Shown piece by piece: positions 5,862-36,015 of a stretch of 37,654 bases of DNA (position 1 is its first letter; every line of letters begins with the position of its first letter). The notes below the pieces were generated by a model, which saw nothing but the letters and a program-made list of their open reading frames with translations, was not told the DNA's origin and did no database searches. This DNA is from Nemertoderma westbladi (lineage: Eukaryota; Animalia; Xenacoelomorpha). The stretch is from NCBI GenBank assembly GCA_032718475.1, contig JAUCBJ010008286.1:1-37654 (forward strand). Reading direction: 5' to 3'. A program made the translations under genes and the position numbers.

Positions 5862-5939
5862 CCGCTCCCAGAAAATGGGATTTAAGTCTATAAAATATAC
5901 CAAATCACAGTTTCTAAAATATAAAAATACTCTAAACAG

Positions 5940-9927: not shown

Positions 9928-12900
9928 TTGCGGTATTTATTAGATAACAGGATTCGTTGGCATCGGAGAATTCGTCTGTATAGAATCCTTCCCACTCAGA
10001 ACCTTGGTCAGTGTCGTTCACATCACTGAATTGGACATGTAGTTCGGGCTCACTTACCTGACTCGGGTTGTCTCGTTCGAACTCACTGTGTAACAAAATG
10101 TGATGTTTCGCGCCACACTTTGCACACTTTGCGTCGGAGTAACAGGTTCGCCGTTGGTGTCCTGATCTGAGGCAATTATAGCATAACCGCTTATTCCACA
10201 GGACTGTACGTCTGTCTACAGGGGATTTCTTTAGAAATTCAGCACACGCACTCAAACGGTGAGGCCCGTCGCACAGCGCACATTTTGGTTTGATGTTACT
10301 CACCTTAACTTGGTTAACGTTATGCACTCTCGTTCTTTCTTCGGGCTTTCTTCCATGAATTCTCTTAGGAGACGTAGGAGGAGTTGTTGTTACCTGTTCT
10401 CTCCTGTCACTGGTTCGAGACTTGTATTTACTTACGTCTTTATAGGTCTTGTTGTCATAGTAAGATTTTGCTGTGTCTTTCCCGCTGTCCTCTTCTTGAG
10501 AAGCTTGGCTTTCGCCGTCGTCAGTATAACACACTGGTATTATCCTTCTCCTAGAATCGGGTTTCTCACTTACCTTATTTTCCGATGTTTTCTCTCTGGC
10601 CTGCCTTATGAGTTGTAATTTTACTTCACTATCTAAGAAAGACATGAGATCAGCCATGGTTGGACTTCGTCGTTGTTGTTCATTCATGTACAACACTTTC
10701 TTGTCCCAGCGTGTACATACTCCACCCTTTGGTAAAGTAGAGACTACGGCTCCAATAACCATGGAACTCTGGTATTCGTGCGACTTACCTAACCAGTCCA
10801 GTTGTCTACAGATCTCTTGTATTTCATCGGAAAACTCTATAATCCCACTACTAAGGAAGTGTCGGGGGGCTACTAATTTTGTATACAAATACTTAGCTAT
10901 GTTATCTTTGTTACCATACCTGATGTTTAATGTATCCCAAACTTGTCTTAATCCATCTGGATGTCCAATAAACTTTAACGCCATTAACTTGGGAGGTCCT
11001 TCCAAACACTTGATGAGGAATCTAAGTTTCTCTCCGTTAGATAGTACAGAGTTCTGTATGCTATCTTTGTAATATTCGTTGAAAGGTAACCATTTCATCT
11101 CATCTCCATTGAATTTGACGATCTCTCCCACTTTGACCGCTTGGCGGGCTTCTGTTCTAGCCATCTGACGCGTAAAGCTTTCTTGGGCCATCGTGTTATT
11201 TAATATCGAATTATCGGTATACAAATTTCTCGGATCATTATCAGGTCTATAGGGAATATCATTAATAACAGGTCTATAATCACCCTTAATAGGGTTTGCT
11301 ATAGGAGTTTCAACTTCACTAGCAGTATAGATGCGTGTAGGCTCCACACCTTGCGCATGTAATACTTCAGACCTAACGGGTTGACACAATGTTACAGGAG
11401 GCATTGGTATGCCTTTTTGTATATTGACTAATTTGTCGCGTTCTAGCGCGATACTTTGCTGCACTTCTTGCAACTCTGCTCTACCTTCCCTCACTGTTCC
11501 CTTAAGTTGGTGGACAGTCTCCTGCATCTGTCCTAGCAGGAGATTCATCCCCCGCCGTCCCTCTTCCACCCACTCAACCGCCGAAGCGGGAGTCGCCAAC
11601 ATAGTAGCGGGCTGACGCGGGACGACGGGAGACAAATTATTGATTTCTCTCTCTGCTATCTGGACAGGGGTATTTGCATGGACTGTTCCACCGGGTACAG
11701 GCAGTGTAGTGCTATGTAAAGGGAATTTAGAGTTAAGCTCTGGAAGTGTAGGGGTCTCTAGCACAGAAGTGACTTTGGGAACTACAGGCCTAATTATTTC
11801 AGGTTCATCGACTATAGTAGGGAGTCTTTTGACCTGGATAAATTGTTCTATGGGTTCTGCACTACCTAAATCCGTGCTAGTTAGCTGTCTTTTAACAGCT
11901 GGGGGCAAATCAGGCAATTTGCGACGGTAATAGGTTTTTCTACGCCTACTTAGATGGGATCTATTTCCTCCGCCTTCAGGGTCGGTAGTATCGCCTTCCT
12001 CCGAGGATGTGTACCCCTGGCGCTTGGGAGTAGATTTTCTCATCATCTGCATTTGATTAGCAGTAAACTGTTTATTTATACTGTCTTGTGTCTCTTGCAG
12101 ATTCTCCAACTCCAGTTGGGTAGTCTGCTCAAATGCTCTCCTTTCTGCTTCTGCCACTGCCTTTGCCACCTTGGCTTCTGCTTCTGCATCTGCCGCCGCT
12201 GCCTTTCTTTCTGCTTCTGCATCTGCCGAAGCCGCCGCCTTTGCTGCTTTTCTTTCTGCTTCTACTTCTGCCGCCGCTGCCTTTCTTTCTACTTCTGCTT
12301 CTGCCATAGCCGCCGCCATAGCCGCCGCCTTTTGTTCCTCTATCCTTCTTTTCTTTATTTGTTCTTCTCGGACCCTAGTGAGGCGGAGTTTTTCATCACA
12401 TTCAGCTTGGTTTGCAGCTAACATTTCGGCATCGATCGAGTCCAATATAAGCTTGGTTCCTTCACTATTAGGGGAAAGTCCATGCAGCCGTCTCCTCAAC
12501 TCTTCGTCTCCTAGGAATCGCTGATAGTCGGACAAATAAATGTCGATAGCGTCTCTAGTTCGCGGTTTCTCGGCGGCCTCTTCGCTTTCCGCTTGAGAAA
12601 GGGTGACATCAGTTTGTTCTTCACAAGTTGATCTCTCAGCCAGCTGGGATTTCCACGTGGCCGTTTCCTGTACTTTGAGATCTACCCGATGTAACCAAGT
12701 TTTGACAGCAACCTGCAGCGACGTGTCCTGTCTTCTTTTGGAAGTTTCCTCAAAGGCTGAGAGGATTAGTCGAATGCGTAGGGTTCTTTCACGTACTTGG
12801 TATAGCAGCTCTTCCTGCTCTTGAGGTCCTTGAAGTTGTCGAAACAGTTGTTCTTCCAAGCGCTCCAAGGAGCCGAAGAATCCCTGCACATATCCTGCTG

Positions 12901-13501
12901 CCGACCTCTTCCAAACAGCTGGATCCATTGTATCTTTTGCCACTCCCATCCTGTGTATTTCTTCCCAAGTAGCCTCGGACAGGTCCAACGGGAGTCCGAG
13001 TCCGGGAAAGTTCCATTGTGATTCAACAATAGATCTCAATTCTTCCCTGGCGTATCCCGCGTAATTATCTTGGGTCGCTCGCTTATTCTTCGCCCAGTCG
13101 GCTTGATGTTCCTCCACCGCAATGAATATAGTAGTTAGCACTGCAGCAGGAAGAGTAAGAAGGGGGTCCGAGTAGACTGTATCAGCCGTCTGCACTTCAT
13201 GTTCGGGAGTCAGCTCTACAGTATCCGAACTGCTGGAGCTATCGGATCGCTGGGAAGTAGGTTCTTGACCAAGATGTTGCTGCGATAGGACAACTGCCTC
13301 TTGGTCCCGTTTTACCTGTGCCCGAGTGCCTATGATGGACCTATGGTGGACTAGCCTAGGGTCTGATACTACTGGAGGGATGACCTTTTTTACAGTAGGA
13401 GGTGAGCCGAACTTCTCTCTTATTCGCTCCACACTCCTATCTGAATCACAGATAGTGGTCTCGATCAGACTGTCCGACAGGTTTTGCTGAGTGTCAGACA
13501 T
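9782..13501 (-). CDS. gag: BEL/Pao Gag (DUF1759-type capsid region, three Cys/His knuckles, Ala/Glu/Lys coiled-coil repeats)
   Basis: 1239-aa open frame. KFNGDEMKWLPF...EKLRFLIKCLEGP...LNIRYG is a BEL gag signature. Knuckles: CALCDGPHRLSAC, CYNCLRSGHQRRTC, CAKCGAKHHILLH. The last ~40 aa are out of frame after a 4-bp duplication at ~9907-9914. Confidence 0.92.
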   Translation of the reverse strand: MSDTQQNLSDSLIETTICDSDRSVERIREKFGSPPTVKKVIPPVVSDPRLVHHRSIIGTRAQVKRDQEAVVLSQQHLGQEPTSQRSDSSSSSDTVELTPEHEVQTADTVYSDPLLTLPAAVLTTIFIAVEEHQADWAKNKRATQDNYAGYAREELRSIVESQWNFPGLGLPLDLSEATWEEIHRMGVAKDTMDPAVWKRSAAGYVQGFFGSLERLEEQLFRQLQGPQEQEELLYQVRERTLRIRLILSAFEETSKRRQDTSLQVAVKTWLHRVDLKVQETATWKSQLAERSTCEEQTDVTLSQAESEEAAEKPRTRDAIDIYLSDYQRFLGDEELRRRLHGLSPNSEGTKLILDSIDAEMLAANQAECDEKLRLTRVREEQIKKRRIEEQKAAAMAAAMAEAEVERKAAAAEVEAERKAAKAAASADAEAERKAAAADAEAEAKVAKAVAEAERRAFEQTTQLELENLQETQDSINKQFTANQMQMMRKSTPKRQGYTSSEEGDTTDPEGGGNRSHLSRRRKTYYRRKLPDLPPAVKRQLTSTDLGSAEPIEQFIQVKRLPTIVDEPEIIRPVVPKVTSVLETPTLPELNSKFPLHSTTLPVPGGTVHANTPVQIAEREINNLSPVVPRQPATMLATPASAVEWVEEGRRGMNLLLGQMQETVHQLKGTVREGRAELQEVQQSIALERDKLVNIQKGIPMPPVTLCQPVRSEVLHAQGVEPTRIYTASEVETPIANPIKGDYRPVINDIPYRPDNDPRNLYTDNSILNNTMAQESFTRQMARTEARQAVKVGEIVKFNGDEMKWLPFNEYYKDSIQNSVLSNGEKLRFLIKCLEGPPKLMALKFIGHPDGLRQVWDTLNIRYGNKDNIAKYLYTKLVAPRHFLSSGIIEFSDEIQEICRQLDWLGKSHEYQSSMVIGAVVSTLPKGGVCTRWDKKVLYMNEQQRRSPTMADLMSFLDSEVKLQLIRQAREKTSENKVSEKPDSRRRIIPVCYTDDGESQASQEEDSGKDTAKSYYDNKTYKDVSKYKSRTSDRREQVTTTPPTSPKRIHGRKPEERTRVHNVNQVKVSNIKPKCALCDGPHRLSACAEFLKKSPVDRRTVLWNKRLCYNCLRSGHQRRTCYSDAKCAKCGAKHHILLHSEFERDNPSQVSEPELHVQFSDVNDTDQGSEWEGFYTDEFSDANESCYLINTASVSSTYLRKRHQRGVSPNYFRQTTILESSSFQRRNQRISCSSGKSSRS

Positions 13502-13584
13502 GTTTAGTTATACAGTTGAATGTCTACTACTATAGTTTCAGTTAAAGCAAGTCTAGTAATTCAGTATGACCGCAAGCCTAGCGA

Positions 13585-13880
13585 TTTATTACCGGTACCG
13601 TTACTCGGTGTAACGTGATATATACACAATATATTAGAATACCGGTATGCTTATAATATATAAGTATTATTACAGACTAGATTTGTCACAGAGTACCGGT
13701 ATAATTTTAGCACAAATATATATATATATAGTAGGCCTATAATGAATACCGGTATACAGCTTACACTTACAGCATGTAAGTATAATTATGAACTAGAATT
13801 AATTACAGAGTACCGGTATGATTTCAGCTCAAATTTATAGAGATAAATATAATAAGCCTATAGTAAGTACCGGTATGTCA
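13585..13880. repeat. Diverged ~120-bp tandem repeats with six TACCGGTA palindromes in the element 1 leader
   Basis: ACTAGA..ACAGAGTACCGGTAT..TTT.AGC.CAAAT...GCCTATA..TACCGGTAT is seen at ~13675 and ~13790, with additional TACCGGTA copies upstream. Confidence 0.65.
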
Positions 13881-14856
13881 ATTATTTTAGAATAATTGAA
13901 TTTCTGAATATTTTAGGGTTACTTAGTTACTTTAACTTACTTTATTACCGTTATTTAAGCAGTAGTCCAACTGATAGTGAGACCTAGTTTTTGTGTGGCA
14001 GGCCTACTATTTATAAATCGTTTGGGTTGATTTATAATATTTATATACCCGTTATATGGGTTTTTGTCAATATTTGAAATAAATGTTATTATTTCTGGGG
14101 GAGTCACTACACAGAAGCTGAACGCCTCTAAGTGAAGTGCTATTTATTTGACACTAAAACTGATAATTCTAATTTACCTAAGTTACTTAATACTACAAAT
14201 TACTTACGATACGGGTGAGATTAATTCTCTAATTAAACACAACAAAATATTACGTACGAAATTTTTAGGGTAATTTTACAGGAAGTCTACAAACCAGTCC
14301 AACAAAGGGTTAGATTTCTGGCTATTACAAAGGACAGGGTACTACGGTATTTGAAATAATAAGTAGTAGTAAATATATTGTACTGTCCAGATAGGAAAAT
14401 ACCACCGCCTGACGACCTATAACCGTATCGCTATAGGTACAACGTTATGTATCACGGATTGTTCCTACCCAGAAGTTAATAGAGCTAACGAATGTGCCTA
14501 TCAACCACTTTACAACACAAAAATACTGCCTACACTAATTACTTCGGAAGGCACTGTACTCTAAACCCTAAATTAGGTACAAGTACCGGTATAACAAATA
14601 ATCAGTAGTTAAATATACTTGAACAGTTAAAAGAACCACGGCATCTGCTGGAGTGACCGAAGCACAAAGTCGTCAGTCTTTACCTACGCCAAGCAGCCCT
14701 GATGTAGTACCGGGGTTAGTTTAACTATAACGGTATGTATAACAAGCACAATTACTGTAGGAATAAACTTGGGGACATGAATGTTGCGAATAATCGCATA
14801 AACTCTGAATAATAAATATTACGCTACCCGTACAGAATACTCAAACGAATACAAAC

Positions 14857-15325
14857 CAAAACGCTGGCTGACTACTATCAAGCCTAAACAAACTACTGTA
14901 TGTGCAGATTCTGAAACTGTTAGTCAGTATGCGTGCTAACACGGTAGTACGACTTACTCTTTAAGAGGGGATTGACCTTACCGCTTATGGCTGCCCCAAC
15001 TTACTAACGGCGCTTGATCAGACCAACTCTACACACGCAGCAATCCCTTCAGACCTACAATAGCTAGACAACAATCCAGCCCACAAATATTTGAGTAATA
15101 ACTATTACGGTACCTGAACAGACCACACAAACAAACACAGGCTAAAACACTGGCAGACTACGATCAAGCCTAAATAAACTACGGTATATGCAGACTCTGA
15201 AACTGTTAGTTAGTATGCGTTCTAACACGGTAGTACGACTTATTCTTTAAGAGGGGATTGACCTTACCGCTTATGGCTGCCCCAACTTACTAACGGCACT
15301 TTATCAGACAAACTCTACACACGCC
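14857..15325. repeat. Direct repeat pair (~180-bp conserved block, 286-bp spacing) in the element 1 leader
   Basis: CTGG..GACTAC.ATCAAGCCTAAA...CTTTAAGAGGGGATTGACCTTACCGCTTATGGCTGCCCCAACTTACTAACGGC starts at 14864 and 15150. Confidence 0.9.
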
Positions 15326-15634
15326 GTAATCTCTCCAAACCCAACCACAGTCAGACAGCAGCTCAGCCTACAATTATCTGAACAATCTGAGCAGGGTCAC
15401 ACGCCTTCTGCTCAATATTAGCCTACTAGGAAATAAAACCGACAGAAATAGGTAAAATCTCAATAAAAATTCAGGGCTGCAGTCCCTGATTAAGTACTAA
15501 GACCTACCAGTATACAATAATCAAAATCGAATAATACTAAATGTACTTGTACAGCAGTACCGGTACCGGTGATGACAGTTAGGCCTACTGACCTACAGAA
15601 GCACCGGTTCAGTTTTACCAGTCACTACGGTATT

Positions 15635-15767
15635 TTGCAACCTTATTGCTTACTGCAATAAGATTGTAAACTGTTACTGTTCGACAGAACAGTATTAAAC
15701 CGTATTTAATGCCTACACTTGCAACCTTATTGCCTACTGCAATAAGATTATAAACTGTTACTGTTCG
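15635..15767. repeat. ~49-bp hairpin-containing duplication (84-bp spacing) abutting the 5' LTR
   Basis: TTGCAACCTTATTGC(T/C)TACTGCAATAAGATT(G/A)TAAACTGTTACTGTTCG occurs at 15635 and 15719. Each copy has the stem CTTATTGC/GCAATAAG. Confidence 0.85.
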
Positions 15768-17006
15768 CGCTTTTGAAGACCTTTAGCAGTTTAACCTGCC
15801 AAAATTTATATGTCTTTTCGTTAATTAAAACCACTTTAGCATACGACAATATTTTATGCTAATACGCAAAACACTAGCCGAAATCAGCCCATGCGCGATC
15901 ATTCACCCGATGGATCTACACCCGGGAGACTGAATTCGGATGCTTAAATTTTATTATTACAGTGTAAGGTTGCAGTGTATACCTAATGTATTATTCGATA
16001 GATCGTTAATAATTAATCTCTGACAGGTATTATTGGCTTTCGGGAAATATTAACAGTTCCTTTAGGACGTGGCGCTTTATCTATTTAAACAGAACTAAGA
16101 CTTATACTAAACGCAACGATACTGCTTATGATTGAAGTATAAAGCGTATTCTTTAGGAAATACTTTGTTACCAATCACAATCATACACACTATTCTGCCG
16201 ACAGTCAGTATATTTGATCACACATAAAGAGAGCAGTAATTGACTCACGTAGGGTCTGCTAAATAACATTGGATTCAATACACACCACATTAATATAAAT
16301 CGCAATTGTTATGTATAGCCGGTCTCTCTAACCTGTAGTGTTATCAAGAAAATTGGGAATTGGGTGATTTATCCGTATTATCCAAATAGCAATATTTCCA
16401 TCAACAAATAGGTACAATTAATAACTGACAGTAAATAACAGTAAAAACAATATGATTAATGCAATTAAATTAAGTGAGCATGTTAATTAGTGATTTATTG
16501 AGTAATTAATTGAGGTAACAGTTTATACTTTCGATAATTCAAGCAGTTTACTAGAGTTCTTCCCAAAAAGGCCGGTGTTTCTGGCTTAGACAGCAATAAC
16601 AACAAAGTAACAAGTAAAACAGTAAGACAGAACACTCTCCTTATGATCGGCAGAAAAGCTACACGTCGATAGGAAAAACCGCCCTGATTGGCCCAAGCCA
16701 AACAAAGAACCACGCGTCCAATGGCTGTTTCCATGTCAGCAACCAGCTGCTAGATGTCGTAATATGAATCATCACGGCTAAGCTGTGAAAGGTAGTTGGT
16801 GCATTACAAGTTTTTTGCCTTACCATGTCCGCCAAAACACGTATATAGCAGAATGATTTTTATGTCCGTTAAAACACCTGTAAAGGTACCTTGCGGGCGA
16901 GGGGAATATATATACAGTTAGAAAACCTTTTTAGAGTATTCCAGCGCCTGGGGGAGAACTGGCCAGCAAAGGCAAACGTATCAGTTATCCCACAAAAGCT
17001 TTTACA
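15762..17006 (-). repeat. 5' LTR of element 1 (1245 bp)
   Basis: Direct copy of 4618-5861, followed by the TSD AGTGT. Confidence 0.96.
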
Positions 17007-17480
17007 AGTGTCAATAAGTTTTTCATACACATCCTTACTCCGAGTTATTATAATAAACGAGCTATAGGTCTGGTGTAGTTGTTTCGGGTTAGCAACAACC
17101 GAACCAACAGACAAATTATGCTGCGAGTTAATAAACTCCTCGACAACCGCAGCTGTTGTTTCGGGGATGAAGCGAGAAACAAAGATACGCAACTCTCGCG
17201 GCTCACGGGCAGCCGCAACTAGGCCAGGAAACTCAAAAGTACCGGTTCCAATCGGCGCCGGACGTTTCTTCCGCCTGTCAGCAGTGAAACCACCAGGGAT
17301 CGCAGCACGGGTACCAGAAGCAGGTGGAACAGGACCGTCCGATGTAGCAGGTTGCTTGGAGGGACCTCCATCGACACCGCCGCCACCCCGGCGTCGTCCT
17401 CGTAGACCACGTAGTTTAGCAGATCGAGGAAGTCGACTAGCTTCTTCACTGTCAGAAGCAGCCTGATCAGATGTACCCAC
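17007..17480 (-). pseudogene. LINE ORF1, 5' part (basic/disordered region + RRM-like domain)
   Basis: IFVSRFIPETTAAVVEEFI...YSSFII is an RRM-like ORF1 signature. The listed ORF 16869..17480 reads into the LTR after residues LIDT. Confidence 0.8.
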
Positions 17481-17542
17481 GGGCTAAGAATACTCGCGGA
17501 CTAAGAATACACACGGACTAAGAATACACACGGGCTAAGAAT
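17478..17542. repeat. 17-bp minisatellite, ~4 copies (CACGG(A/G)CTAAGAATACA)
   Basis: Units start at 17478, 17495, 17512 and 17529, directly upstream of the LINE ORF1 fragment. Confidence 0.9.
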
Positions 17543-17577
17543 TCCGGAGACCACATGGAGGTTTGAGCCAGACAGCC

Positions 17578-19518
17578 TGTTAAACAGGGGCAATCAGGAG
17601 CGCGTTATTACTGCTATTGCTAAACACAAAACTGCTTCTTACCGCTGGATTGCGCTAACCTGCCGTCCGCTAATATATTTTACTAATTTTATACGGCTCC
17701 TGCAAATCGCTTGTTCCTTTCTCCACCGATCGCTCTATAGAGAGCTAACTGTTCGAATCTATGAGCCACGCGGGAGTAACCAAAACAATAAACCCGAGAC
17801 GGCTACCTAGGCTACTTAAAACGAGTGTTAGAGGCTTACACTCAGGGTGTTCACTTATCGTCTAATCGCAATACTGGGGTTCCCTAACGGAATGTGTGAA
17901 TGTGAGAATGTTTAAATAACTCAAAGTGTGACGAAATGACCTATCGGACCGGTACTGTATGTGGGTCTAACTTGCCTTCGGCTGGCTTTAGGCCAGCAGC
18001 TTACTACTGTATACTGCTATCAGCTCGTTGCCCGCTATTTTCAAATAACCGCCCGGCGTGAATAGTTACAGTACTCCAAATAATTACTTTAACTACAGTA
18101 CTCCCCGCTATGCTGCGTACAAATTCTTAATTTTACATAATTAATTACAGTCATAAATATGAAACAGCGTACTAATTACTAATGTTCCAGAATACGCAAT
18201 TCTAATTTATTACGTACCGGGTTACACTAGCAACAGCCTAAATACCATATTAATTTGACCTAATCAGCAATTATTAATCGTAAACTAAGAAATAGAAATC
18301 AATCAAGGGAAAGGGCGCCTATCTAAATATTCACAATCAAGAATCAGGCACACTTAGCAACACACAAATCAGCGTAGCAATCAGCTAACAATACGGTACT
18401 GCGTTGACTACCAGTCAGCTAGCGCACTAAAACCACACAGTAGCGCATCAGTATATCATTATAGTATGCAATTGAAAACCTATAACTAACTCTAGTTTAC
18501 AATTAGAAATTGCAGTGACAGACATAAAGGCCTCTCCCGGCTACAGTATAGGGTTCCTAACTAACCCAAGTCCTGCCCCCTAACACTACAAATAGAGACA
18601 AAATCTGGATCGTCAGCCCCTTATCACTGTACCGGCTGCCGGCCCCCAGTCCACACTGACTAACCCCCGGCTGCAACGGTGACCCCCGGCCAGCGTTGCC
18701 CGCCTTTGAATCCTCCGCACTCCCTTCGTCGCTACCCCCCGGTGCGCCCGCCGCACCTACCGGTACCTTAGCCCTCAATTAGAACGAATAGCTACCGTAG
18801 CGGCGCATGACAAACAGTCTGACAGTCTAAAGAAAATCCCGTGGGATTATCGCATCTTAAATCACATAGAACCATTAATCAAGGGGTAGAAATCATAGTT
18901 CGAAAGTGTGATTTGCAGTAACCATTTAGATTGATTGAGAAATACAGCAAAGAATAAAGCAGAAATTACAAAATTGCATATATACATCAAACATATAGGG
19001 TCCAAAAACAAAGATTATAGATAACTGAGAATCAAAGATAGAGAATGTGGATTATCCGCGCTACCATTAGACCAACCTGGAAGCAGCTAGGCCAATAAGG
19101 AAGCCAGATTGTGAATCTAATGCCTCCCAGAATCACAAATTACTACCATATATGGTAACAGTGGCTTAATTTACTTAATTACTTTATTTAGCGGTACTAA
19201 AAGCACGGTACATACAATCTAATTTAGCGCAAATATTATGGAATTTAAAGCAAATACACGGTTAATCCTATTGATACCAATAACAGCAAGCTTACATCAA
19301 GGGTTTTATAGGAAACGTGCTACCGTAGAACTATTTATTTATATTTTATTACAAAATTACGTAGGTAGGGCTACATACTATACAAAAATGGATAAGATTC
19401 ACAAATATGGATATTTTATTCTCCTTATCTAAATATGGTTGCGCGTCATTATGGCTTATCTAAATAATTATACTGTATAACGGGCTGATAATGGTACACA
19501 GCACCATATACCGTAACA
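17578..19518 (-). repeat. Putative 3' LTR of element 2 (~1.94 kb)
   Basis: Begins TGTT and ends AACA on +. It is preceded on - by TGGAGCAG, similar to the GGGAGCGG before the element 1 3' LTR, and is non-coding. No second copy is available, so the ends are inferred. Confidence 0.45.
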
Positions 19519-19679
19519 CTGCTCCAAGGGAAACAAGCAATGTTTCCCTCCAATTGTAGAAGAATATAGGGCGATGTAAACAAACAAAATAAAAATTACC
19601 TTCAAATAATCTAAATACTTGGTCTTATAATAGTTCTAATATTTACAAATATTGCCATAGATATTGCATAATGGTTTTA

Positions 19680-19830
19680 CATACAAATCAAATTTACAAA
19701 ATATTATCTCTCTCACTGTATAATGATTACTAAATACAAATTAAATTTACAAAAATATTGCTTTCTCTTACTACATAATGATTACTACATACAAATTAAA
19801 TTTACAAAAATATTGCTCTTTCATTTACAA
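19680..19830. repeat. Three AT-rich ~54-bp repeats (TACAAAT.AAATTTACAAAA.ATT) in the element 2 3' UTR
   Basis: Copies at ~19682, ~19734 and ~19790. Confidence 0.7.
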
Positions 19831-21780
19831 ATTGACGATCTACATAAAAAAAACCTGGCTAGGGCAGGTGAAAGGAGTAAGCCAAACCCGCAGGTTTGTC
19901 TCCCCAATCACCTCCTTCGCCTCTCTCATAATATAAGATTCCAGAATATGAATACGACTAGTGTATATGAGTCCAGTCGAATGTTTTACTAAATACTACG
20001 ATATACATCAGAGCGACGATGATGTATATGTCTGACTCTATATGTAGAGTCTGTCGCTCCGTGATACGATCGCATTATCGACTTGCTGCTGGGTTCTTCG
20101 GGCTCGCTCCCCTCTTTCGCCCCCTCCCCAGATACACCAGTCTACCTCCTGTAGACTCTGTTGACGGCGTCCGTGAGGCGTCACTTCCTGGAACAGGCGA
20201 CGATGTCCCTGGGCCCCGACTGTTTCTCGGCTGGTACTCCTCCATCGGCCTCGTCCCATTTGTTGTGTTCCCGTGGTCGCATCCGCCAACTCCTCCTTCT
20301 GCAGTTGCACGCGCGCCTTTTCGGACGCGCCTTGTGCCCTTCGCTGCAGACGTTGAGCTTCAATAATAGAGTGATAGTGCTCGTCCTTGACCTGACGCTT
20401 GTCTAGGACTCCTCCTTCTGGTACTTTCCGCAAGCTATGAGCTCCGGTGGTTGTCGCTGTGGGCGCCGCGGTCCGTTGCTCCTCTATCTGTTCGGCGGTC
20501 AATGAACCCACCGGTACGTGAGTCAACAGAAACTCGTTGCAGTATTGTATAGCCGCTATCCTCCAATCTCCTCTCGCGCGCACCACCTTTCTAGTCTCCG
20601 AAAAATAGACCTTTGGTTATACGGTCGCAAATAGCAACAAAGTTCCAAGTATACTTATTGTCCATATTCAACTGTCTAAAATATGATCGGACAACGATAA
20701 CTCCAGTATTCTGCGGAAGGTCTTGAGCGGTTAGTATCAGCTCCTGATATTGTGGTAGAGATTGCAAATACGGCTCGTATGCGACGTGTGATGGATCTAC
20801 CGCCCAGAACCCGTATCCTGCTTTAAACGGCAACCAACGCATTTGTGCTTGGATGTGGTAATCAGCCACACCCTCCCACTTGTCTAACATTTCCCGGAGT
20901 AGGTTGGCGCTATGGTTTTGGAAAGAATCATCACGCAGTTGACATTTCGCGCTACAATGTCCCTTTACCCCACAATATCCACATTGAGAAATGAAGACGG
21001 TGCATGTATGGAATAAATGATCTGTCTCGTTGCACCAACGGCAGACCTTATGCGCCGCCTCTACTATAGCATCGCACAACTTTTGACTATGCCTTGTACT
21101 GCCGCACAACTTGCATCTACGCGCTTGTGGAAACCAGGCCCTCTCATATATGAGGTCTCCAATCGGCTTCGCACTTCCTCCCTTCCCAATGTCTAAAACG
21201 ATGTCATCCTCTCCGGTCAGAGGTTGTCGATCCGGAACAAAGTAAACATCCTCGCCTTTGTCCTCTATCTCCAATATTTCCTCCCGCATTCGTTTCGGAT
21301 ATGTCTTCGCCACTGGGAGATCCACTCCGAACACCTCTACTAACGTCTCCGGCCAACCCTCTCTAACGGGTCTATCCGCCTCCAAGTGGACGGGAGTACC
21401 AAACCCGCGGGTTTGATCCCCGAACCACTTCTCCAAGGCCTCTGGCGTCGGATACTCCATTGACGGTCAGTCTCCCAAATCTCCGATGTTCTGTCGATAT
21501 ACTCCTTTGAATATCGCTAATCCTCTCCTAACCATCGACGTGTTCTCTAGCGATTGGTTGAAGAACGGGGTTAAGAAACGCTTCATCACGTCGGATTGGA
21601 TTCCCCCTTTCGAGCGAACGTATTGATCTCCTCCAAACACCAATGGATGACGCTTCAAAACTCGCGCAACGATATCCACTACTAAACAAGTTACCGTGCT
21701 CGACTCAAGCACCAAATAATATTGCAGCGACGCACGGGGTGGCGCGCAGATGTTCCAATACACTAACGCTTGCCGCTTAA

Positions 21781-23144
21781 CCGTTACAGGACTGGGCTAT
21801 TTTCCGTGCACCAGGACTGGGGGGGGGTTGATTCCACCCCCCCTTCCATTTTGGATAATTACTGGCCATTTTTTTTTTAAAATTGGTAGTAATGTGAAAA
21901 AATAAATACCTAGCTCGTGTGTGATAAAAAAATTTATTTTCGAGTTATGGGTGGCACCGAAACGGCACTTTTCGTGCACCCACTGAAAAAAATAAAATTT
22001 CAGTAAAACAAGTCAAAAAGTTACTTTCCGCCCGGTTTTATGGGTTTTCGACCCCACTGAATCCTACCTGATGGTCCATATCGTCTCATAATGTTGATTT
22101 ATGCCATTTTTTAGAAGCACCCAAATTTGAAATTTTCATGCCACACCCACTTCTAGGATCCCCCGAAAAATACCATCCCACTTGTCTGTGACATCTATCT
22201 ATCGGTCTAAATCGATTCAGCGACCTCGAAAACCTTTGTACACAGAAAATTGACCTTTGGAAATGAGTACGATTGAAAGTGAAAATTTGAATTTTTCGTG
22301 CCGCACCCACTTTTGAAGGACTCCCCAAAAAATACCATCCCACTTGTCTGTGACATCTATCTATCGGTCTAAATCGATTCAGCGACCTCGAAAACCTTTG
22401 TACACATAAAATTGACCTTTGGAAATGAGTACGATTGAAAGTGAAAATTTGAAATTTTCGTGCCGCACCCACTTTTGAAGGACTCCCCGAAAAATACCAT
22501 CCCACTTGTCTGTGACATCTATCTATCGGTCTAAATCGATTCAGCGACCTCGAAAACCTTTGTACACAGAAAATTGACCTTTGGAAATGAGTACGATTGA
22601 AAGTGAAAATTTGAAATTTTCGTGCCGCACCCACTTTTGAAGGACTCCCCGAAAAATACCATCCCACTTGTCTGTGACATCTATCTATCGGTCTAAATCG
22701 ATTCAGCGACCTCGAAAACCTTTGTACACAGAAAATTGACCTTTGGAAATGTGTACTATTGAAAGAGAAAATTTGAAATTTTCGTGTTGCACCCACTTTT
22801 GTAGGACCCCCAAAAAATGTATTCAGGGAATTTTTGACGTAAAATGGACACCATTGTTCGATTCGGTATACCAAAAAACCTTTATAAACGAGAAACTGGC
22901 TGACAACATCAATCCTTTCAAAAGTTGCAAATTTTAGCTTGAAAAGTGCTGACATGTGTTTTTTACACCCCCTATAACTCGAAAACTAACAGAGCTATAA
23001 AGTTCTCGTTTTTTTTGTGAGATTCAGAGATAAATTTTAGGAAAACTCAGGAAATTTCAGCTTACTGCGATCAGTGCTTCTGCGCAGATCACTAGATAAA
23101 CTTAAGGGGGGGTGGATTCAACCCCCCCCCCAGTCCTGTAACGG
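21781..23144. mobile_element. Non-autonomous piggyBac-type DNA transposon
   Basis: TTAA at 21777-21780 and 23145-23148. 16-bp TIR CCGTTACAGGACTGGG / CCCAGTCCTGTAACGG. Asymmetric subterminal G7-TTGATTCCA-C7-type repeats and no transposase. Excision restores the flanking reading frame. Confidence 0.93.
22110..22810. repeat. 162-bp tandem repeat, ~4.3 near-identical copies, inside the piggyBac-type element
   Basis: ATCGGTCTAAATCGATTCAG occurs at 22201, 22363, 22525 and 22687. Confidence 0.95.
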
Positions 23145-25414
23145 TTAAAGTGGGATTTGAACTCCGCTCCCGGTGGCGTGCTATATTCACCATACGCATC
23201 CTCGCATTTCTTTTGCGTCTTTAACTTGAAGTCCCAATTGTATAACAAATGCGCTATAAAGCCCATACCAGTCTTAGCAGAGTTTGGGTACTCTCTATAA
23301 ATTCCAATATCCTGTGCCCATAGCAACAATAGCTTGGTGTCCCAAACGGTCTCGGCAATCTATCCTCCAAATCCGTCATGGTGTTGAAGTCGCTCTCCAA
23401 GTCACTCTGGACTCCCGATCCCACCTTGACGTAATCCTGGTTGAGAATCGCCTCTATAACTTTCTTGGGTAGCATCCTGGCATTGATACGCTCTGCTCCG
23501 TGCATACCTCCTCGCCTGCATACCTCCAAAATCTGCTCCCTGAGATCCTTCCCCCGCCGATATTGCGTCGTTATGATGGGCTCCGGTCTCTCTCGGTCCG
23601 CCCTCATGCGCATAAATACAAGAGTCACACCATCGGCCGCGTGAATTTGAATGCACTTACTAGTTAGGCACTCTTGATGGGACCCTCCCTCATTGTCGTA
23701 AAACATCACGCGCCAATCCTGTAGGGATTCCTCTGTCTTTCTCCATTGACGCTGGATATCGTCGGATGGGGTCCACATGCGCTCAATATCCTTGTGGTCA
23801 TCGTATTGGGTGTAGGAACCCTTCCTCCTCAGCCACGCCTGATCTACCTCCTCGTCGTCCGGGAATGTAGCCACCGCGACCCATACCTTTATGTACTTGT
23901 CCAACCAACCAAATAATTTGCTCTCCTTCCCCGGAGCTCCAATCTTGTCTAACGTATCGTAATCCGTTATCTGCATCGGGACGTCACGCAAGAACTTCGC
24001 GCATAAAACTTCCCGTAGGCAGTCGCGTTCCAATGATCCGACGACATCACCATCGGCAAGAATCGAATGGCTTCTCGCGACTCCAGGTATTGGTTCGTTG
24101 CCGTCGGAATAATACACCGGTCGGGGTTGAGATACAGCCTGTGGAACAAATCCAGTCACTCTCCTAGTTTCCTCCTGATGTCTATCCGCGGTCTTATTAT
24201 ACTCCGCTATCCGCTCTTTGAATAACTGCTTCGCTTTCGCCGCTCGCTCCTCCTGCCGCAATGCATCTATATCGTCCTGATGCTCAGGCATGAGATTTCT
24301 CGCTCGGTGAGGCGAAGTAAACGTGGTCCAGGAACTCGAGAGCTCGAAACCCGCGGGTTTGGTACTCGAGTCCCGTGCCGCTTCGCGCCGCGCCTCTAAG
24401 TCCTTATAGGCTCGGTATAGCGAAATGGCCGCCGCCGTCTCTATCAAAGCGGGTGTCGAACAGGGTTTAATCTCCGTATACGGATCTAAAGTCGTAACAG
24501 TCGGCGTAATGGGTCTCGGAGGTCGCTTTCCGCTAAAGTCGATACTGATCATCGGGTTGCTCATCGGGTAACCTCCCTCGTTGTATCTAAGAAACTGGTG
24601 AGCTTGACATCGCGTTAATATCGGTTCAGGATTCTGCTCATTCAGTCGATCGGGAATCGCTACGTCTTGCTTATTCATGCATTCGCCACATTTGTAGAAC
24701 AACTTGTATATACTGAAAACCTTTGGCGTCTCCTGATCCTCGCTTCGAGTCCTCCGGTAAAGGGGCATTCCGTCGAATTGATCCCGGACTACAGGTAGCG
24801 GTTCGTCATATCGTAAATACATGTTTAATATGGTATAGACGAGCGATTTCCTCATCGGGGTCTGCGCTAATATCACATACATCAAGGGCAAAGTCGTAGG
24901 GATAACGAGTGCGATATTCTTTCCGTAGAACCTCCATGCGGTGTCCCAACGCTCGCATCTGTTCCCTCCTCAACTCCTTCTCATACGTGGGCTTATACTT
25001 CCCGTTCAACTCCATCACTGATCTCCCGTGGTAGTAAACATTCGAATCCTTACACCCGGGTTGGGCGAACGGTAGTTCCGCCTCCTCTCTGGCGGTGAAC
25101 CCTCTCCTCGGTTGCGCTCTCATTTCCTTCTCCATTTTGCCACGTATATATACATATATCCAATTGGGTCCATTACGTAACTAATTACACTGGGTAAATC
25201 AGTTAGATGATGCCGAAGGACAGACTTGCCAAACCCCCGGCCGCCTTCCAGCAGTTCAGGTTCGGCTCTCTAGATCCTGTCTCATTCCTAACTACCTTCT
25301 AACCTATTCCCATGCATAGCGCAAAAACTTCGGAGATAAACTGGCCATGACCAACTCACTTTTTGATGCCCAAGCTACTCCCAATACTTGTACTAGACTA
25401 CAGTAGTTAAAAAG

Positions 25415-26097
25415 GACAATAGTTCAGCCATCTCCTGTTCCAATACTCTGGCGTTCACCCTCTTGTAAACCAGACAGGCGTCGTACATAGTACCTACTGC
25501 CCTGCTTGGCTGCAATAGAATGAATCGCTGTCTCGCTGCCGACTAACAGTATAACTTTCCCATGTGATGCAACCTATTATGTATATCCCATAGAATCGCT
25601 CTTTGCAATTCTATTGGGTGACTAGGGATTATCACTGGGAACCTAAACTTTGAGTTTATGTCGACAGTCTGGATTCTCGATCTAAGACAAATCAAACCCT
25701 TATGGATTAATGGACTCCATTTTCTAAGGGGTTTATAGAGAACTGGTCGTTGAGCCGATAACAGATAGAATTCTTTCGGGAAGGCACACATTTGATAATG
25801 CTTCAAATGCTTTAATTCCGCTTGATCAATCTCATCCTCTGTCAGAGGTTGTTTCAATTTCTGAATTCGCTCAATATTAGTGCTCATTTGTTCTCCTAAA
25901 TGTTCCGAATGTTTTAAACAAAGGTACGAAACGTATCGGCTTAACCACGCAGTTCTTTTACAAATTGTTAGCCAAGAGGCAGACGAATTTAGTAATTTGT
26001 CATAAATACTACATGGCTCTAATGCCAGCGACGGTTGCCCGCTATCTAATGGAAGTTTCGAATCCAAACCCGCAGGTTTGGAAACCAAAGGCTCCAT
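25415..26097 (-). pseudogene. Element 2 pre-integrase region and integrase Zn-binding domain; catalytic core absent
   Basis: ASWLTICKRTAWLSRY, EIDQAE, LICLRSRI, FPVIIP and HNRLHHMG, then after a stop ...CLVYKR...EQEMAEL. No DDE core is recognisable downstream. Confidence 0.8.
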
Positions 26098-26227
26098 CTT
26101 GTCGGTAATTTTCTATCCGTCACTTACCAATTATGACCCTTGTGTAGTCTGTAAGGGTGGTTTTATGTCATAACTTACCCTTCCGGACCTAGTAGTCACG
26201 TAAGTCTCTTGGTCTGACAGGTCTCCG

Positions 26228-26327
26228 GGCCGCTCCAATTACTCTTCAGGCCGCTCCAATGACTCTTCAGGCCGCTCCAATGACTTTTCAGGCCTCTCCA
26301 ATGACTCATCAGGCCGCTCCAATGACT
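26228..26327. repeat. 21-bp coding minisatellite, ~5 copies (SLERPEE on -)
   Basis: GGCCGCTCCAATGACTCTTCA-like units at 26228, 26249, 26270, 26291 and 26312. Confidence 0.9.
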
Positions 26328-26964
26328 TGAGTTTGGCTTTCGACTTAGACTTGGAAACTTTCTCCACTTTGACTTCTGCATCTATCGGCATCGGATTAGT
26401 TACTACCTTCAGTTGCTCTGGCCAGTGTTCCTGTGTCCTCGTTAGAAAATGAGGTCCATGCAACCAAAACTGCTGGGACTCCTCCTGACAGAATTCCGCC
26501 GGCATAGCACCTCTTGAAGTTATGTCGGCCGGGTTTAACACTCCCGGACAATGTCTCCACTGTTCCTTCGTCGAGAAGTCGACGATCTGAGCGTGTCTGT
26601 TGGCCACAAATGTCTTTAGTGCAATATTGTCAGCTGCAATATACACTAACACTAAGGATGCGTCTGTCCAATAGAATAAGGTCATTGTCGTGTCTAACTC
26701 CTCTATTATCTGCTTACTTACCTCGACTGAGACTACTGCCGCCTGCAACTCTGCACGAGGGACAGTCATGTATTTGACCGGCATTGTCTTTGATCTAGAA
26801 GTCACAAAGGCCGTCTCAAACTTATTCTGACTTACCTCTCGGCGAAGGTAGGCTACCATACCAAAGCCAGTGTCACTTGCGTCACTGAACAAATGCAGTT
26901 CTAAATCAGCTGGAAATACCAGCTGATTCGGAAAGTAGGAGCGGGGTATATCTATATTTTTCAA
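26239..26964 (-). pseudogene. Element 2 RNase H (Pao 'Peptidase_A17' region)
   Basis: IPRSY, LHLFSDAS..GFGMVAYLR, VPRAELQAA, YWTDAS, FVANR, WRHCPGVLNPADITSRG, WLHGPHFL. Confidence 0.92.
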
Positions 26965-26979
26965 TAGATGTAACTCGGC

Positions 26980-28082
26980 TTCCTACTCTCTCCACTGCTT
27001 TGCATGTATAGGGGATATTGGCTCGTCCCACTCTAGGTCGGACAACCAAATTTTCCTCATACATACTCATGCCTGTAATATTATCGGGCTGATAAAGTTC
27101 ATCGGGTCAAATAGTCTACTCATTGTGGATAAGCAGATTCTCTTAGTCAAAACTTTGTCCGGGCTACTGGGCTCAAACCAAACTCTCACCTGGAACTTAT
27201 CCATGTTCGGATTCCAAGCTAGTCCCAGTACTCGCGCCATGGGGATGGGTTCTACCCCCAATTCAATGTCTCCGCTCCCGCGATCTTTCACCGGGAACGA
27301 CTCTAATAGGGCCTCCGAGTTGGTGGTGAACTTGGTCAGAGGGAAACCTTCTGTAGCCAAGCACTCCTGTAGGCCGTGAGCCACTTCTATGGCTTGTTCC
27401 GCTGTGTCCTTGGACACCAATCCGTCGTCCATATAGAAGTTTCTCAGGATGGACTAAATAACTTCTACTGGAAACTTACCTATCTGGGCCATTGCTATTT
27501 TCTTTAGAACAAACAGCGTGCCGTTGGGACTATCGCGGGCACCGAATATCCTGACATACACCTGGCATGTAACCACTGGGCCGGATAGGTCTTCATTCTC
27601 ATATCAGAGAAATCGGAGACTATCCTGGTCCGCCTTGCAGGCTCTTACCTGGTGAAACATTGCCTCGATGTCGCAAGTAAACGCGAATCGCCGCTGTCTA
27701 AAGCGTAACAGTATCCCTATTAAGTAGTTATTTAAGTTGGGACCATCCATCAACTCTGAGTTCAGGGACATACCTCTATAGACTGCTGCGCAGTCGTTGA
27801 CTACTCGGACTTTGTCTGGATTGTCAGGGTGAGTCACATAGTGGTGTGGGAGGTAATAAGTCTGGTCCGTCACTAAGTTGGGGTCCTCTACCTTCCCAGC
27901 AAATCCCTTGGCGAAATAGTTGTTTATCTGGGCGCAATACTTCTCCCTAACGTCTGGATTCTTTAACAACCGAGCCCTTACTCTGTTCAATCTTTTCAGA
28001 GCCAAGTTGTAGTTGTTCTCCAACTTAGGAGGTTGTCGACTCCACAACATTCCAACTTCAAAATGTCCTGTCGGTAGCAGCG
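26980..28082 (-). pseudogene. Element 2 reverse transcriptase (several stops)
   Basis: GHFEVGMLW, YYLPHH, KVRVVNDCAA, SLNSELMDGPNL, LLRFR, DIEAMFHQV, NFYMDD (YMDD at 27424-27435), RVLGLAW, TKR...FDP. Confidence 0.93.
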
Positions 28083-29245
28083 CTTGTGTCCTTCTGGGCT
28101 CCTCCCCGAGGCGCACCAACGAGGCGGACACCTTTCCACCACCCCTGGGGCCAGTCTGACTGATGTTATTATCAGACCGGGCTGGAGGGTGGCCCTATGC
28201 TTCCCGGGTTCTGTTTTCGGTCCCCTGATCACACCGGCACAGCTCGTCGAACGTGTAGCCAGATGGGCGGCTACTGTCAACTTACTGTGGCCTGACTGTA
28301 CATTGAGCCAACTCAGAGAGTCAACCGGCGGGTGGACCAGTCGATAGCGATCGAGCACCAAGGTCGCCCTTGGGCCTAACCGACGGTCTTGTCCCAGGTG
28401 GGCTTGCGCTACCCAACATGGAATATTGATACGTAAGTTCCACAAACAATACTGACTAGTGCGAAAGCTAGGAACAAGTAACCACTTACCAGTCACTGTA
28501 CACGTGTACTCAACAGATGTTCACAATATCAAGTACACAACGGTAAACACAAATTCGGACACATACCATGCACACAGAGGACATAATAGGGAAAGACAAA
28601 ATCGGGGTCAAAATCGAGAAAGACAGGGAATAGTTGTATCGACTGGAGAATATGAGGAAAGAGAGTCGAAAGTACTTTATTTTACCGTCAGGGTAAAATA
28701 ACTTTGTGTGCACAAAGTATGCTGGGGCGCAGTAGAGATATGGTCCTACTAATCCCAGCGGCAACTGAGCCAACTGGCAAGGTTTCCTACACTCACTCGT
28801 AGTGGCCACACATACGATCACATGTACTCACGTACCCACAGCAACAGAAAGCTCATCTCAGACCTAAACACACTCCAAAGACCAATCAGCTGAACATGGA
28901 GACAATAACATATAGTATCAAAAAAACGGAACAGCTGACGGTCAATGGCACACATCCAAGCCCCAAAGCTAACGGCCACTCGTTGCCCACATACAAAACA
29001 CAGTTCACACCACATGAAACACAAATCACGCCATGCCACCACCCCTACTGTGTACAGGAATGGCAGTACGGCAACAGGCCGACTAGGCAATACCACGGCA
29101 CCATGTCGATTCATGGTTCGTCAGACACGAGGGCCTTAAGTATCTCCGTTGCACTTAGATACCGATTTAACGTGCCCCCAGACCCTCACGAGTCCGCCGC
29201 CGCCTGTTATACGCACCCCTATAGAGACCTCAACTCTTTAGGTAC
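28083..29245. other. Unidentified ~1.16-kb insertion splitting element 2 pol between protease and RT
   Basis: EKRSLEMMEDTI (29247 side) and LLPTGHFEVGMLW (28080 side) are normally contiguous in BEL pol. The intervening DNA has no recognisable domain, TIR or TSD. Confidence 0.7.
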
Positions 29246-30870
29246 GTATGGTATCTTCCATCATCTCTAGCGACCGTTTCTCATCAGTGGACATGGTTAA
29301 GTCGTATCCACCGGGTTCCATTGCGTCCCTATCCAGCCATTCGACGGTTCTAGCTCCTGTCTTGAGGTCCTGGCATATCAGTTCCTTCTGCAACTCCTCC
29401 TCCTCACTGTATTGGAAAATGTCGAGGTCTCGATATTTTGCCACTTGACCCTCCACTATATTGGTATAAGTCGAAACATTACTCAAATAGGTGGCGTGGG
29501 CCGCTGAACCAGACCCACGGGTCTGATAACAGTAGTCCTCGGGTTCACTATCTGTCCGGTCATTGTAGAGTGGTTCCGACAATCTAACATTATCGGGAAT
29601 CAACTCCTCGTCCGACTCGCTAACGTCACTATAGTGGTCAATACAGGTTCTCCTAAACTCGTCTATGTCTGGTGGTTCTACTAACGGTGGTTGAGTTACA
29701 GGCTGTAATCCGTCGTGTCTATCCTTTGGCTTGTCACCACCTGAAAACTCATAAGACATGGGTACTCGTGTATACCAACATAGTATAGTCCTATGGGCGT
29801 GTGGTCCATTTACATGCGGCTCAGCTGGTCTCGTTTCCCATATTTGGTGCGCGATCAGCTGTTCTGCTCCAATCAACATAGATACATTCCTATAACCTAC
29901 CTGGTGTCTTGGTATTCTGAGCTTGTCAAAATACTCCTGTGCTATGGGACTCATCGGTGGCACCTTACCTAACTGCCTGCCGAACCCTTTCATAGCTAGA
30001 CACTTGAATCCGTCCAATGGCAACGCTCTCCGTTCTTGGCGAGTGTGCTGGTCTCTCGGGAGTAGGGAGTCTAGTTCTACCGAAATCTTGTGTCCCTTGA
30101 GGTCCCCTACCCCGTGCATGGATTTTAACTCTATTTGGATTTCCTCAGTGTCCTGGAAGCTGGAAACGGCTCTCGCCACTTCCTTGTCTATATATGACAA
30201 TGTGGACGCAGTGTCCAATATCACATATATTCTCTTCGATCCCTTGTCTCCAGTAAGTTTCACCGGAATCACGCTGAATATTTCCGACGTGGCCGATGAC
30301 AAATACGTCCACGCGCTGGGTGATGAACTATCCGCGGTGAACCCTTGGCAGGTCACCTCTCTCGCGCTCGCCTCGCCATCCTCGTCAGACAAACCTGGTT
30401 GATATCCATCGTCCTGGATGCCGGTGTACGTATTTCTTCTCATCATTACGGGATCTCTGCTCCCCTTCCTTTGAGGATTTCTCTGTAGGTAACGGTCTGT
30501 TGGGGTATGGAAATCCGCATGTAGCAACTTGTGATGTAGTCTGCCGCATTCCATGCATCCGTCCTTGCTGTTCATGGCCTGGCGCAAGACATGCCCAACA
30601 GGTGTCCAACGTCTGCACTTGAACTCTTCTCTGTTCCGAAGTTAATTCTTTGAACCGTCTGCAACTGTCTAACTTATGGTCGTCTGATCTTACCTCTTTT
30701 AGTAGGCAGAATTGGCAACCTACAAATCCATCCGGCAACTCCTGTTGCTTTACCTTAGGTCTATCTGACCTCTCACCTTACCATACTCGCGAGTCTGATC
30801 TAAAGGCAGGGGTACTCGAATCGTTGCCAGTCCAGTTTGGTGGCCTAGGAATACCATTGCCTGTCGACCT
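29246..30870 (-). pseudogene. Element 2 gag C-terminus (zinc knuckles) + aspartic protease
   Basis: CQFC...HKLDSC, CWACLAPGH, CMECGRLHHKLLH (frameshift near 30580), VILDTASTLSYI and MLIG. Truncated upstream of ~30870-30900. Confidence 0.88.
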
Positions 30871-35228: not shown

Positions 35229-36015
35229 CTAATATTGGGGCGGCTTTCTCTCGGTCCTGATGTCTGTTCTTAGAATAGGTGTATGTTTGTCTACTATCTT
35301 TTGTATTGATCCTAATATAGGTTCAGTGTTACTAACATAAAATATGGTATATTTACTTTTATTTCGTTTTTTATCATTTTGTAGAGATTCTAACTGTGTC
35401 TGAATAGCTGCCGCTGCAAATTGTGTAGTAACATCGGCCAGTCTCCAACCCCTAGCAATGAATGCTGCTCCATATTCATAAAGTGCTTGCATTAAATCCT
35501 CCATTCGTGAATTGTTACGCCTCAATCGTAGGGCAACCCCATATGGAACGTGTTTAAGTTGACTGTGCGGATGGGCTGAGTGCGGACATATATATTGATG
35601 GACGTCTGTTGGTTTGTGGTATATTTTTGTTTGAAGTATTCCATTGTCATCAAAAAATATAGTTAAATCTAAGTAATTAATTTTCCTTCCATATTCTTAT
35701 AATTTAAACTTTATTTTCCCAGGTTTAACGGTATTGTTGAGGTGGTCAATCAGAATACCGATATCTTCATCTTCTTGTTCAAGTGTAATAGCTATTCCAT
35801 CATCTCTAAATCGTTTCCATTCTTCTGGAGGCTTTGGTGAAGTTCGGACTGCTGTATCAATATATTCAGCACCAAAAATGTCTGTGTAAGAGCAAGAGTA
35901 TGATGGGCCCATTGCCGACCCATCCACTTGTGTGTAATGTTTTCCATTAAAACTACAATTATTACAATTTAAACATAATTCTAGAGCTTCAGTCAAACAT
36001 TCTACTGGCACTGGG
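35229..36015 (-). pseudogene. Penelope-like element reverse transcriptase fragment (palm + thumb)
   Basis: YTQVDGSAMGPSYS and WKRFRDDG, then after one stop INYLDLTI, IYHKPTD, SAHP and VPYGVALRLRR...FIARGW. No GIY-YIG domain seen, and both ends are truncated. Confidence 0.88.

Follow-up and report, generated by a model that had tools for sequence, protein, structure and literature searches.

The stretch of DNA analysed here (37,654 nucleotides; below, the window) is positions 1–37,654 of contig JAUCBJ010008286.1 from the xenacoelomorph Nemertoderma westbladi (assembly GCA_032718475.1), and consists of repeat-rich eukaryotic DNA, without N, in which two BEL/Pao retrotransposons, elements A and B, both lie on the minus strand. 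Between its degraded pol and its 3′ end element B carries a large gene, referred to here as its cargo. With a likelihood that we place marginally short of even, this cargo is best explained as the broken copy of an accessory gene of a many-copy BEL/Pao family, encoding a soluble protein with a triple zinc knuckle and with a middle domain of possible WRN/EXD2-type DEDD exonuclease descent, which is likely catalytically altered or dead. That the cargo is a coding gene borne by the element is very probable, and we regard it as a real and apparently undescribed accessory gene of BEL/Pao, belonging to the class of third open reading frames (ORF3) that are not env, its nuclease domain being unproven.

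The third gene of element B

The cargo is made up of six pieces on the minus strand, amounting to about 1,237 codons; three frameshifts, one TGA and one 1,368-bp insert flanked by TTAA interrupt it. The first piece (24806–25135) comprises 109 codons from an ATG at 25135, stops at the first frameshift and has no family match; the second (23344–24808) contributes about 488 in-path codons of a 571-codon frame and holds an orphan N-terminal region and the N-terminal half of the exonuclease-like region; the third (23150–23341) lies between the second frameshift and the insert. The TGA (21467–21469, minus strand), which is either a mutation or a true stop, is followed by an in-frame ATG at 21460, and the last piece (20038–20616), located after the third frameshift, encodes a basic, low-complexity tail. 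The 571-codon frame is far above chance, 222 codons being the longest obtained in 500 shuffles, and the GC content by codon position in the cargo is similar to that of the pol pieces. In the orphan N-terminal part a CxxC...CxxH motif (24690–24598, minus strand) is a possible candidate for a further zinc site.

A reading of this DNA made earlier from its letters alone (hereafter the sequence-only reading) had placed the start of the gene at 25135, in a good context. The context CAAAATGG is present, whereas the status of this ATG as the start is less secure, since two ATGs in another frame (25173 and 25155) precede it closely. Within 25120–25210 of the minus strand there is a possible branch point with a splice acceptor (CTAAC...CCAG, near 25190), downstream of which come a 17-codon upstream ORF from ATG 25173, a short TA-rich run and then ATG 25135.

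The slot occupied by the cargo is that of the env-like third genes of Belpaoviridae (Tas, Cer7, Atlas), which lie between pol and the 3′ long terminal repeat (LTR) according to the available text of the sources (PMC8742986; PMC554778, PMC9094657). Unlike these genes, the cargo is without signal peptide, membrane anchor or glycoprotein likeness and has knuckles instead. In fact, the highest 19-residue hydropathy (1.63) is internal, the first and the last piece reaching 0.19 and 0.81, respectively, so that hydropathy reveals in the cargo neither a signal peptide nor a C-terminal membrane anchor; because no piece has a convincing membrane segment, the cargo is not an env. The extra genes of BEL/Pao named in the available parts of the literature are env-like only (PMC8742986; PMC3118150, PMC554778, PMC9094657, PMC11662393). 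A full-text literature search, with Repbase, GyDB and most subscription papers outside its scope, returned no report of an exonuclease or knuckle ORF3 in BEL/Pao. Some BEL-type Cer elements of C. elegans reportedly carry an exonuclease between integrase and env, for which the literature search returned no statement; were this right, the novelty of the present case would drop.

Other copies of the family were sought among contigs from three public DNA runs (two samples, two studies), of which 4,657, 9,597 and 5,984, respectively, aligned to the pol-plus-cargo stretch; thousands of contigs, at 80–99% identity, lie over pol, cargo and 3′ region of element B, contig depth being a figure distinct from copy number. 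In all three runs contigs 14–15% diverged align free of gaps over 23544–23892. The first and the second break of the cargo are spanned by other contigs with a single gap each, and the third by one contig (20458–20645) with one gap and no other differing letter; because each break is crossed with a single gap, the frameshifts look particular to this copy, although from contigs mutation and assembly error are not separable. The words shared by this copy with its relatives amount to 0.26–0.28. Of 524 differing positions 40 are listed, and these give no indication as to the presence of the TGA in other copies. The 17 near-fixed cargo differences among those listed fall on codon positions 1, 2 and 3 in 5, 8 and 4 cases, a small subset that has no bearing on selection.

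The TTAA-flanked insert (21777–23148) has terminal inverted repeats (TIRs) that are perfect over 20 nt including the TTAA (21777–21796 and 23129–23148) and contains four 162-bp internal repeats; its empty site is joined across by one contig of run X1. It is non-coding and resembles a miniature inverted-repeat transposable element (MITE). The insertion itself is confirmed; the label piggyBac attached to it in the sequence-only reading rests on TTAA and TIRs, a trait of that family, and not on a transposase.

As to the element around the cargo, the gag end and pol of element B (25421–30777, minus strand) are degraded but, by their sequence, clearly Pao-type: Gag Cys-His boxes, protease, reverse transcriptase with YMDD, RNase H and integrase zinc finger can be read from the ORFs, giving the domain order protease–reverse transcriptase–RNase H–integrase of BEL/Pao, and Pfam matches Peptidase_A17 (PF05380, E 2.4e-21) and RT_RNaseH_2 (E 0.005). 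The integrase core is absent from this copy, other copies diverging at 25421 to judge from the loose ends of contigs. The Gag end displays a triple Cys-His box, read across a frameshift (ORFs 30777–30385 and 30641–29238) and weakly similar to the Gag boxes of element A; the 5′ side is cut near 30821, beyond which the loose ends of contigs indicate that other copies carry different sequence. On the opposite side, a 3′ untranslated region and presumed 3′ LTR (17474–20037, minus strand) ends in ...GGGTACA, and contig cover falls here by 60-fold or more, approximately; this CA-ending border at 17474 is the sole one, no partner LTR being found within the window. A 1,164-bp insertion within pol (28081–29244), skipped by contigs in all three runs, is itself densely covered by contigs and has no match elsewhere in the window, and 21-bp repeats occupy 26222–26326, in the linker between RNase H and integrase.

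The knuckle module and element A

The triple CCHC knuckle of the element B cargo (20942–21115, minus strand) reads CX2CX4HX4C twice and then CX2CX3GHX4C, and is followed by a conserved post-knuckle stretch. A related module is found in element A (4618–17006, minus strand), which is bounded by two LTRs (4618–5861 and 15762–17006), 99.6% identical over 1,245 bp, and by the target-site duplication ACACT. Element A is young, holds a 1,241-codon gag frame matching DUF1759 (Pfam, E 2.9e-12) and, with pol largely deleted, is probably a non-autonomous derivative. Its ORF3 (5940–7229, minus strand; approximately 430 codons), broken and with an in-frame TGA amid other damage, has the triple knuckle in the middle of the protein (6710–6513; zf-CCHC_3 in Pfam, E 0.002–0.0035), a basic tail and no exonuclease-like part. 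The pol deletion begins past the protease and takes in everything up to where RNase H ends; an AT-rich spacer of 1.6 kb is present, and the 5′ leader contains a 286-bp duplication (14806–15381).

When all frames of A were compared with all frames of B, the best match outside pol was that between the 3′ ORF of A and the knuckle piece of B (blastp E 4.6e-10, 30% over 98 residues), a second match being located just downstream (E 0.004). The score of the knuckle alignment, with Cys and His held fixed, was equalled in none of 2000 shuffles, and the same is true of the post-knuckle stretch (0/2000); the pairwise alignment has 30 invariant columns. Because a homologous gene occupies the same slot inside the LTR pair of element A, the knuckle module is cargo borne by the element; furthermore, since element A keeps only this module, the knuckle part looks like the core of the protein and the nuclease-like part like an add-on.

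Outside the window the knuckle piece has non-significant library matches (Air2, E 0.17; Lin28, E 0.21), sharing with CCHC proteins of the Air2, Lin28 and CNBP type the tandem CX2CX4HX4C knuckles; the ESM Atlas gave leads of 0.78–0.89 to CCHC and DUF8363 clusters, all below 0.9 and none significant, and a word-indexed search of longer proteins returned no homologue among 1,078 candidates. Binding of single-stranded nucleic acid is a general property of tandem CCHC knuckles, and those of the cargo are predicted, with good confidence, to bind nucleic acid as well, likely RNA. For the third Gag box of BEL the available text of PMC554778 gives CX2-4CX3HX4H; since the cargo has CCHC in its third knuckle also, the module is not a plain duplicate of Gag. 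Taken together, these data bear out the sequence-only reading in its broader part, namely a sense-strand, non-membrane cargo gene with three CCHC knuckles, borne by a BEL/Pao element in its env slot and dead in this copy.

Likeness of the middle region to DEDD exonucleases

The more specific part of that reading, in which the order of the DEDDy motifs was taken as established and an exonuclease was proposed, fares differently. Its quoted motifs do occur in the cargo, where D is encoded at 23697 and 23403 and E at 23691 and 21706, with the reservation that VWDT spans the second break of the cargo and its first residues are therefore not assignable. Statistical weight is found only in the ExoII-like block, whereas ExoIII is at chance, as described below.

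Reference profiles were built from bacterial PF01612 domains, and a read-through of the cargo region, in which X stands for every break, served as the query; bacterial references and a decayed query copy lower the sensitivity of these tests. For the WRN/EXD2-like profile 83 domains were gathered and 44 (<75% identity) kept, the seed matching the structures of WRN, EXD2 and Mut-7. With this profile the read-through region ranks first among 687 segments of the window and its score is reached by one of 2000 shuffles. An ordered-block test, which tolerates long insertions and from whose decoys 55 of 229 bacterial windows were removed as true exonucleases, places ExoI, the two next strands, the ExoII helix and the KVG block at the positions assigned to them by the sequence-only reading. 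The N-terminal part attains z 3.8, a value matched by one of 2000 shuffles, by none of 210 natural decoys and by one of 250 column-scrambled profiles. The ExoI-like DxE (VMFYDNEG, 23689–23697, minus strand; D 23697, E 23691), although placed blind, is weak alone (3.3 bits); the whole signal rests on the ExoII-like block with its KVG...D, YVKVGSGVQSD (23401–23433, minus strand; 13.8 bits), the only block that carries a DEDD signal, from which the hhalign match continues over the frameshift and across the third piece of the cargo into the next helices. The C-terminal part, on the other hand, is at chance (z 0.6; 519 of 2000 shuffles equal it). The proposed ExoIII (W...YYLVLE, 21704–21757, minus strand) is not matched by the profile (−9.5): instead of YxxxD some 12 residues after the Trp, this decayed copy has YxxxE one residue further on. 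When the ExoIII block is split post hoc, a Lys-Arg-Gln...Trp stretch ahead of it scores 5.8 bits and the YxxxD block still −9.5. An intact DEDDy active site is therefore not supported.

Several results weigh against an exonuclease descent of the middle domain and the role built upon it. The score with the WRN/EXD2-like profile is only 5.9 bits (E 0.31), hhalign gives p 0.014 with a probability of 3%, and the profiles of RNase D (20 sequences), NrnC-like proteins (40) and PolA (20), like the pooled one, are blank, a single profile out of five having responded; with PF01612 giving nothing, no significant match to a DEDDy family profile was obtained. Without the ExoII block z drops from about 3.7–3.8 to 0.27; with neutral spacers the true order of the blocks scores 2.69 vs 2.79 for the best of 119 other orders; and the cargo, with 12.9 on the N-terminal part, falls short of true DEDDy subfamilies that had been held out (minimum 30.0 for RNase D and 19.0 for PolA). 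Libraries are equally silent. Pfam, run on 23 and then on 7 pieces, has no match in the exonuclease-like region, and the DNA_pol_A_exo1 (PF01612) hit that had been suggested as a check does not appear at E up to 10; NCBIfam and PHROGs on six pieces and a search of PDB sequences are blank, phmmer with a 500-residue piece finds none of 1.84 billion representative proteins at E 0.001, the word-indexed search yields no homologue of the exonuclease-like piece among 208 candidates, the ESM Atlas has no usable match, and 130 and 10 pattern matches in metagenome and viral contigs include none that was confirmed. Finally, element A does without an exonuclease-like part, and the protection of RNA discussed below is a role that we infer.

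Two single-sequence AlphaFold models, restricted to the N-terminal half and of low confidence (predicted local distance difference test, pLDDT, 48.5 and 59.7, the first including 23 out-of-frame residues), both put the ExoI DxE on a strand. Foldseek against PDB and viral structures gave no match at E 0.001, which, with models of such confidence, says nothing against a DnaQ fold, and VIA returned best Z values of 4.8 and 6.0, both on unrelated chains.

Compared with WRN exonuclease, EXD2 and Mut-7 (Nibbler), all of PF01612, the cargo has the DxE strand, the Gln-bearing strand pair and KVGxG...D in the same order, and differs in a third strand and an ExoII helix that lie about 50 residues further apart, in the unmatched YxxxD and in the lack of a Pfam, PDB or fold match. 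As judged from the letters, the likeness comes down to a single good motif of 12 residues, whose neighbours are compatible with it, and the family was chosen with the sequence already in view, so that the p value of about 0.001 is uncorrected for the many possible families. The proposed WRN/EXD2-like ancestry retains weak support against shuffles at that value and hinges on the one block.

Precedent exists in the bdelloid rotifers, where a DEDDy-type ORF3 is borne by the LTR retrotransposons Juno and Vesta and also by Athena/Terminon elements (Rodriguez et al. 2017, PMC5408684; also treated in PMC6431247, PMC6338049 and PMC5718144). Like the cargo, the Juno/Vesta ORF3 is a non-env ORF downstream of pol without a transmembrane domain and of unproven function, and its acidic motif is altered, one D being replaced by E (DEED), as compared with D-E-D-E in the cargo if the alignment is right; the available text of PMC5408684 describes neither demonstrated activity nor a clear link to copy number. 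Compared by description, the rotifer genes belong to non-BEL lineages and have strong HHpred homology, whereas the cargo belongs to BEL/Pao, has a marginal likeness, is far longer and has a triple CCHC knuckle. Given one motif with compatible neighbours plus this precedent, DEDD ancestry of the middle region may be put at near even odds.

Competing explanations and significance

That the exonuclease likeness arose by chance, the cargo being an orphan accessory protein with knuckles and a middle domain of another fold, is a wholly plausible alternative, though short of an even chance. It would explain why all library-wide searches are blank, and it agrees with a signal that hangs on one block, to which block order adds nothing, and with the post hoc choice of a family at an uncorrected p of about 0.001; it accounts less well for five blocks falling unguided in the expected order, for the extension of the hhalign match past ExoII over the frameshift into the next helices, for a second model (pLDDT 59.7) with helix-strand...strand...helix at matching places, and for the precedent of DEDD cargo in the third-gene slot. 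At the other extreme, the sequence-only reading had favoured an active DEDDy-type 3′–5′ exonuclease with RNA-binding knuckles, trimming or destroying host PIWI-interacting or small interfering RNAs (piRNAs, siRNAs) or processing the ends of element RNA or cDNA, which we consider distinctly unlikely. DxE, ExoII D and final E do stand in order, the Lys-Arg-Gln...Trp stretch scores after the post hoc split, the rotifer ORF3s likewise have one D changed to E (PMC5408684, available text), and the many sites at which this copy departs from its relatives blunt every search; nevertheless the YxxxD block and the C-terminal half fail as described, no fold or family match exists, and the rotifer paper, in its available parts, offers neither activity nor a clear copy-number link. 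A putative nuclease activity of the cargo is, on the letters alone, unlikely, and a putative anti-piRNA action very unlikely; hardly more can be said for the proposal that a BEL/Pao lineage captured a WRN/EXD2/Mut-7-type exonuclease, fused it to a triple-knuckle RNA-binding module that BEL families have in common and now deploys the product as an active enzyme, encoded by the element, that trims the 3′ ends of host small RNAs.

Whatever the nature of its first part, the cargo might be two genes, the first, exonuclease-like, with about 763 codons up to the TGA at 21467 and the second, with the knuckles, running for about 472 codons from ATG 21460, a possibility that fits any reading of the first ORF and that we hold to be real but doubtful. 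The pieces, coordinates, strand and overall length of the single gene proposed in the sequence-only reading are confirmed, and it is its unity that is called into question by the in-frame ATG two codons past the TGA and by the stand-alone knuckle gene of similar size in element A, with its knuckles in mid-protein and its basic tail; against a division, reading continues past the TGA in an unchanged frame, which is what a point mutation would leave in a decayed copy, and the gene of element A also has an in-frame TGA, plainly amid other damage. Extremely unlikely, instead, is that the cargo represents an independent element of high copy number, or a host gene captured recently, lodged inside this BEL copy. 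Among the contigs listed none connects pol with the cargo, over which the contigs sum to roughly half the depth reached over pol, dipping at 24824–25105, and the 5′ LTR of element B is not in the window. However, no introns, terminal repeats or poly(A) were found around the cargo in the window, no empty-site loose end occurs at its borders among the loose ends listed (18 of some 940–950 in each comparison), the LTRs of element A enclose a homologous module in the corresponding slot, and the homologue searches uncovered no close host-gene relative.

If the cargo is, as we prefer, a soluble triple-knuckle protein with a possibly DEDD-derived and likely altered domain, it would be expressed from a subgenomic message that is probably spliced; inside the cytoplasmic particle the knuckles would hold on to single-stranded RNA of the element itself, and the DEDD-like domain may hold or shield the 3′ end of this RNA, so that the protein would serve as an RNA chaperone or end-protection factor and not as a piRNA-destroying enzyme. 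According to the available text of PMC5408684, ORF3s are usually read from spliced messages, and catalytically inactive DEDD derivatives that retain RNA binding are represented by Maelstrom and EXD1.

In the remainder of the window, a long interspersed nuclear element (LINE; 1584–4396 and 16869–17483, minus strand) matches RVT_1 (E 1.3e-27) and Exo_endo_phos (E 8.4e-10); its ORF1-like region is split by element A and adjoins the 3′ end of element B, making a nest of at least three retroelements. A 126-bp satellite occupies 1–860. Fragments at 35229–36026 (minus strand), with no Pfam match, resemble a Penelope-type reverse transcriptase, and around 37178–37410 (plus strand) lies what seems to be a host exon, its start resembling a signal peptide and its 21–24-bp repeats being rich in Thr/Ala and mucin-like.

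The presence in one window of two diverged BEL families with a non-env knuckle ORF3 points to a class of accessory genes that annotation misses. Should DEDD ancestry fail, the cargo would still count as an orphan accessory gene of large size, if one of modest interest, and the active-trimming proposal, if true, would bring nuclease cargo to Belpaoviridae for the first time and offer an animal candidate for an anti-silencing enzyme. If DEDD ancestry is true, nuclease-fold cargo would extend from the rotifer elements to a further LTR lineage, and the many diverged copies would make the question of ORF3 function, as raised in the available text of PMC5408684, testable by selection analysis.

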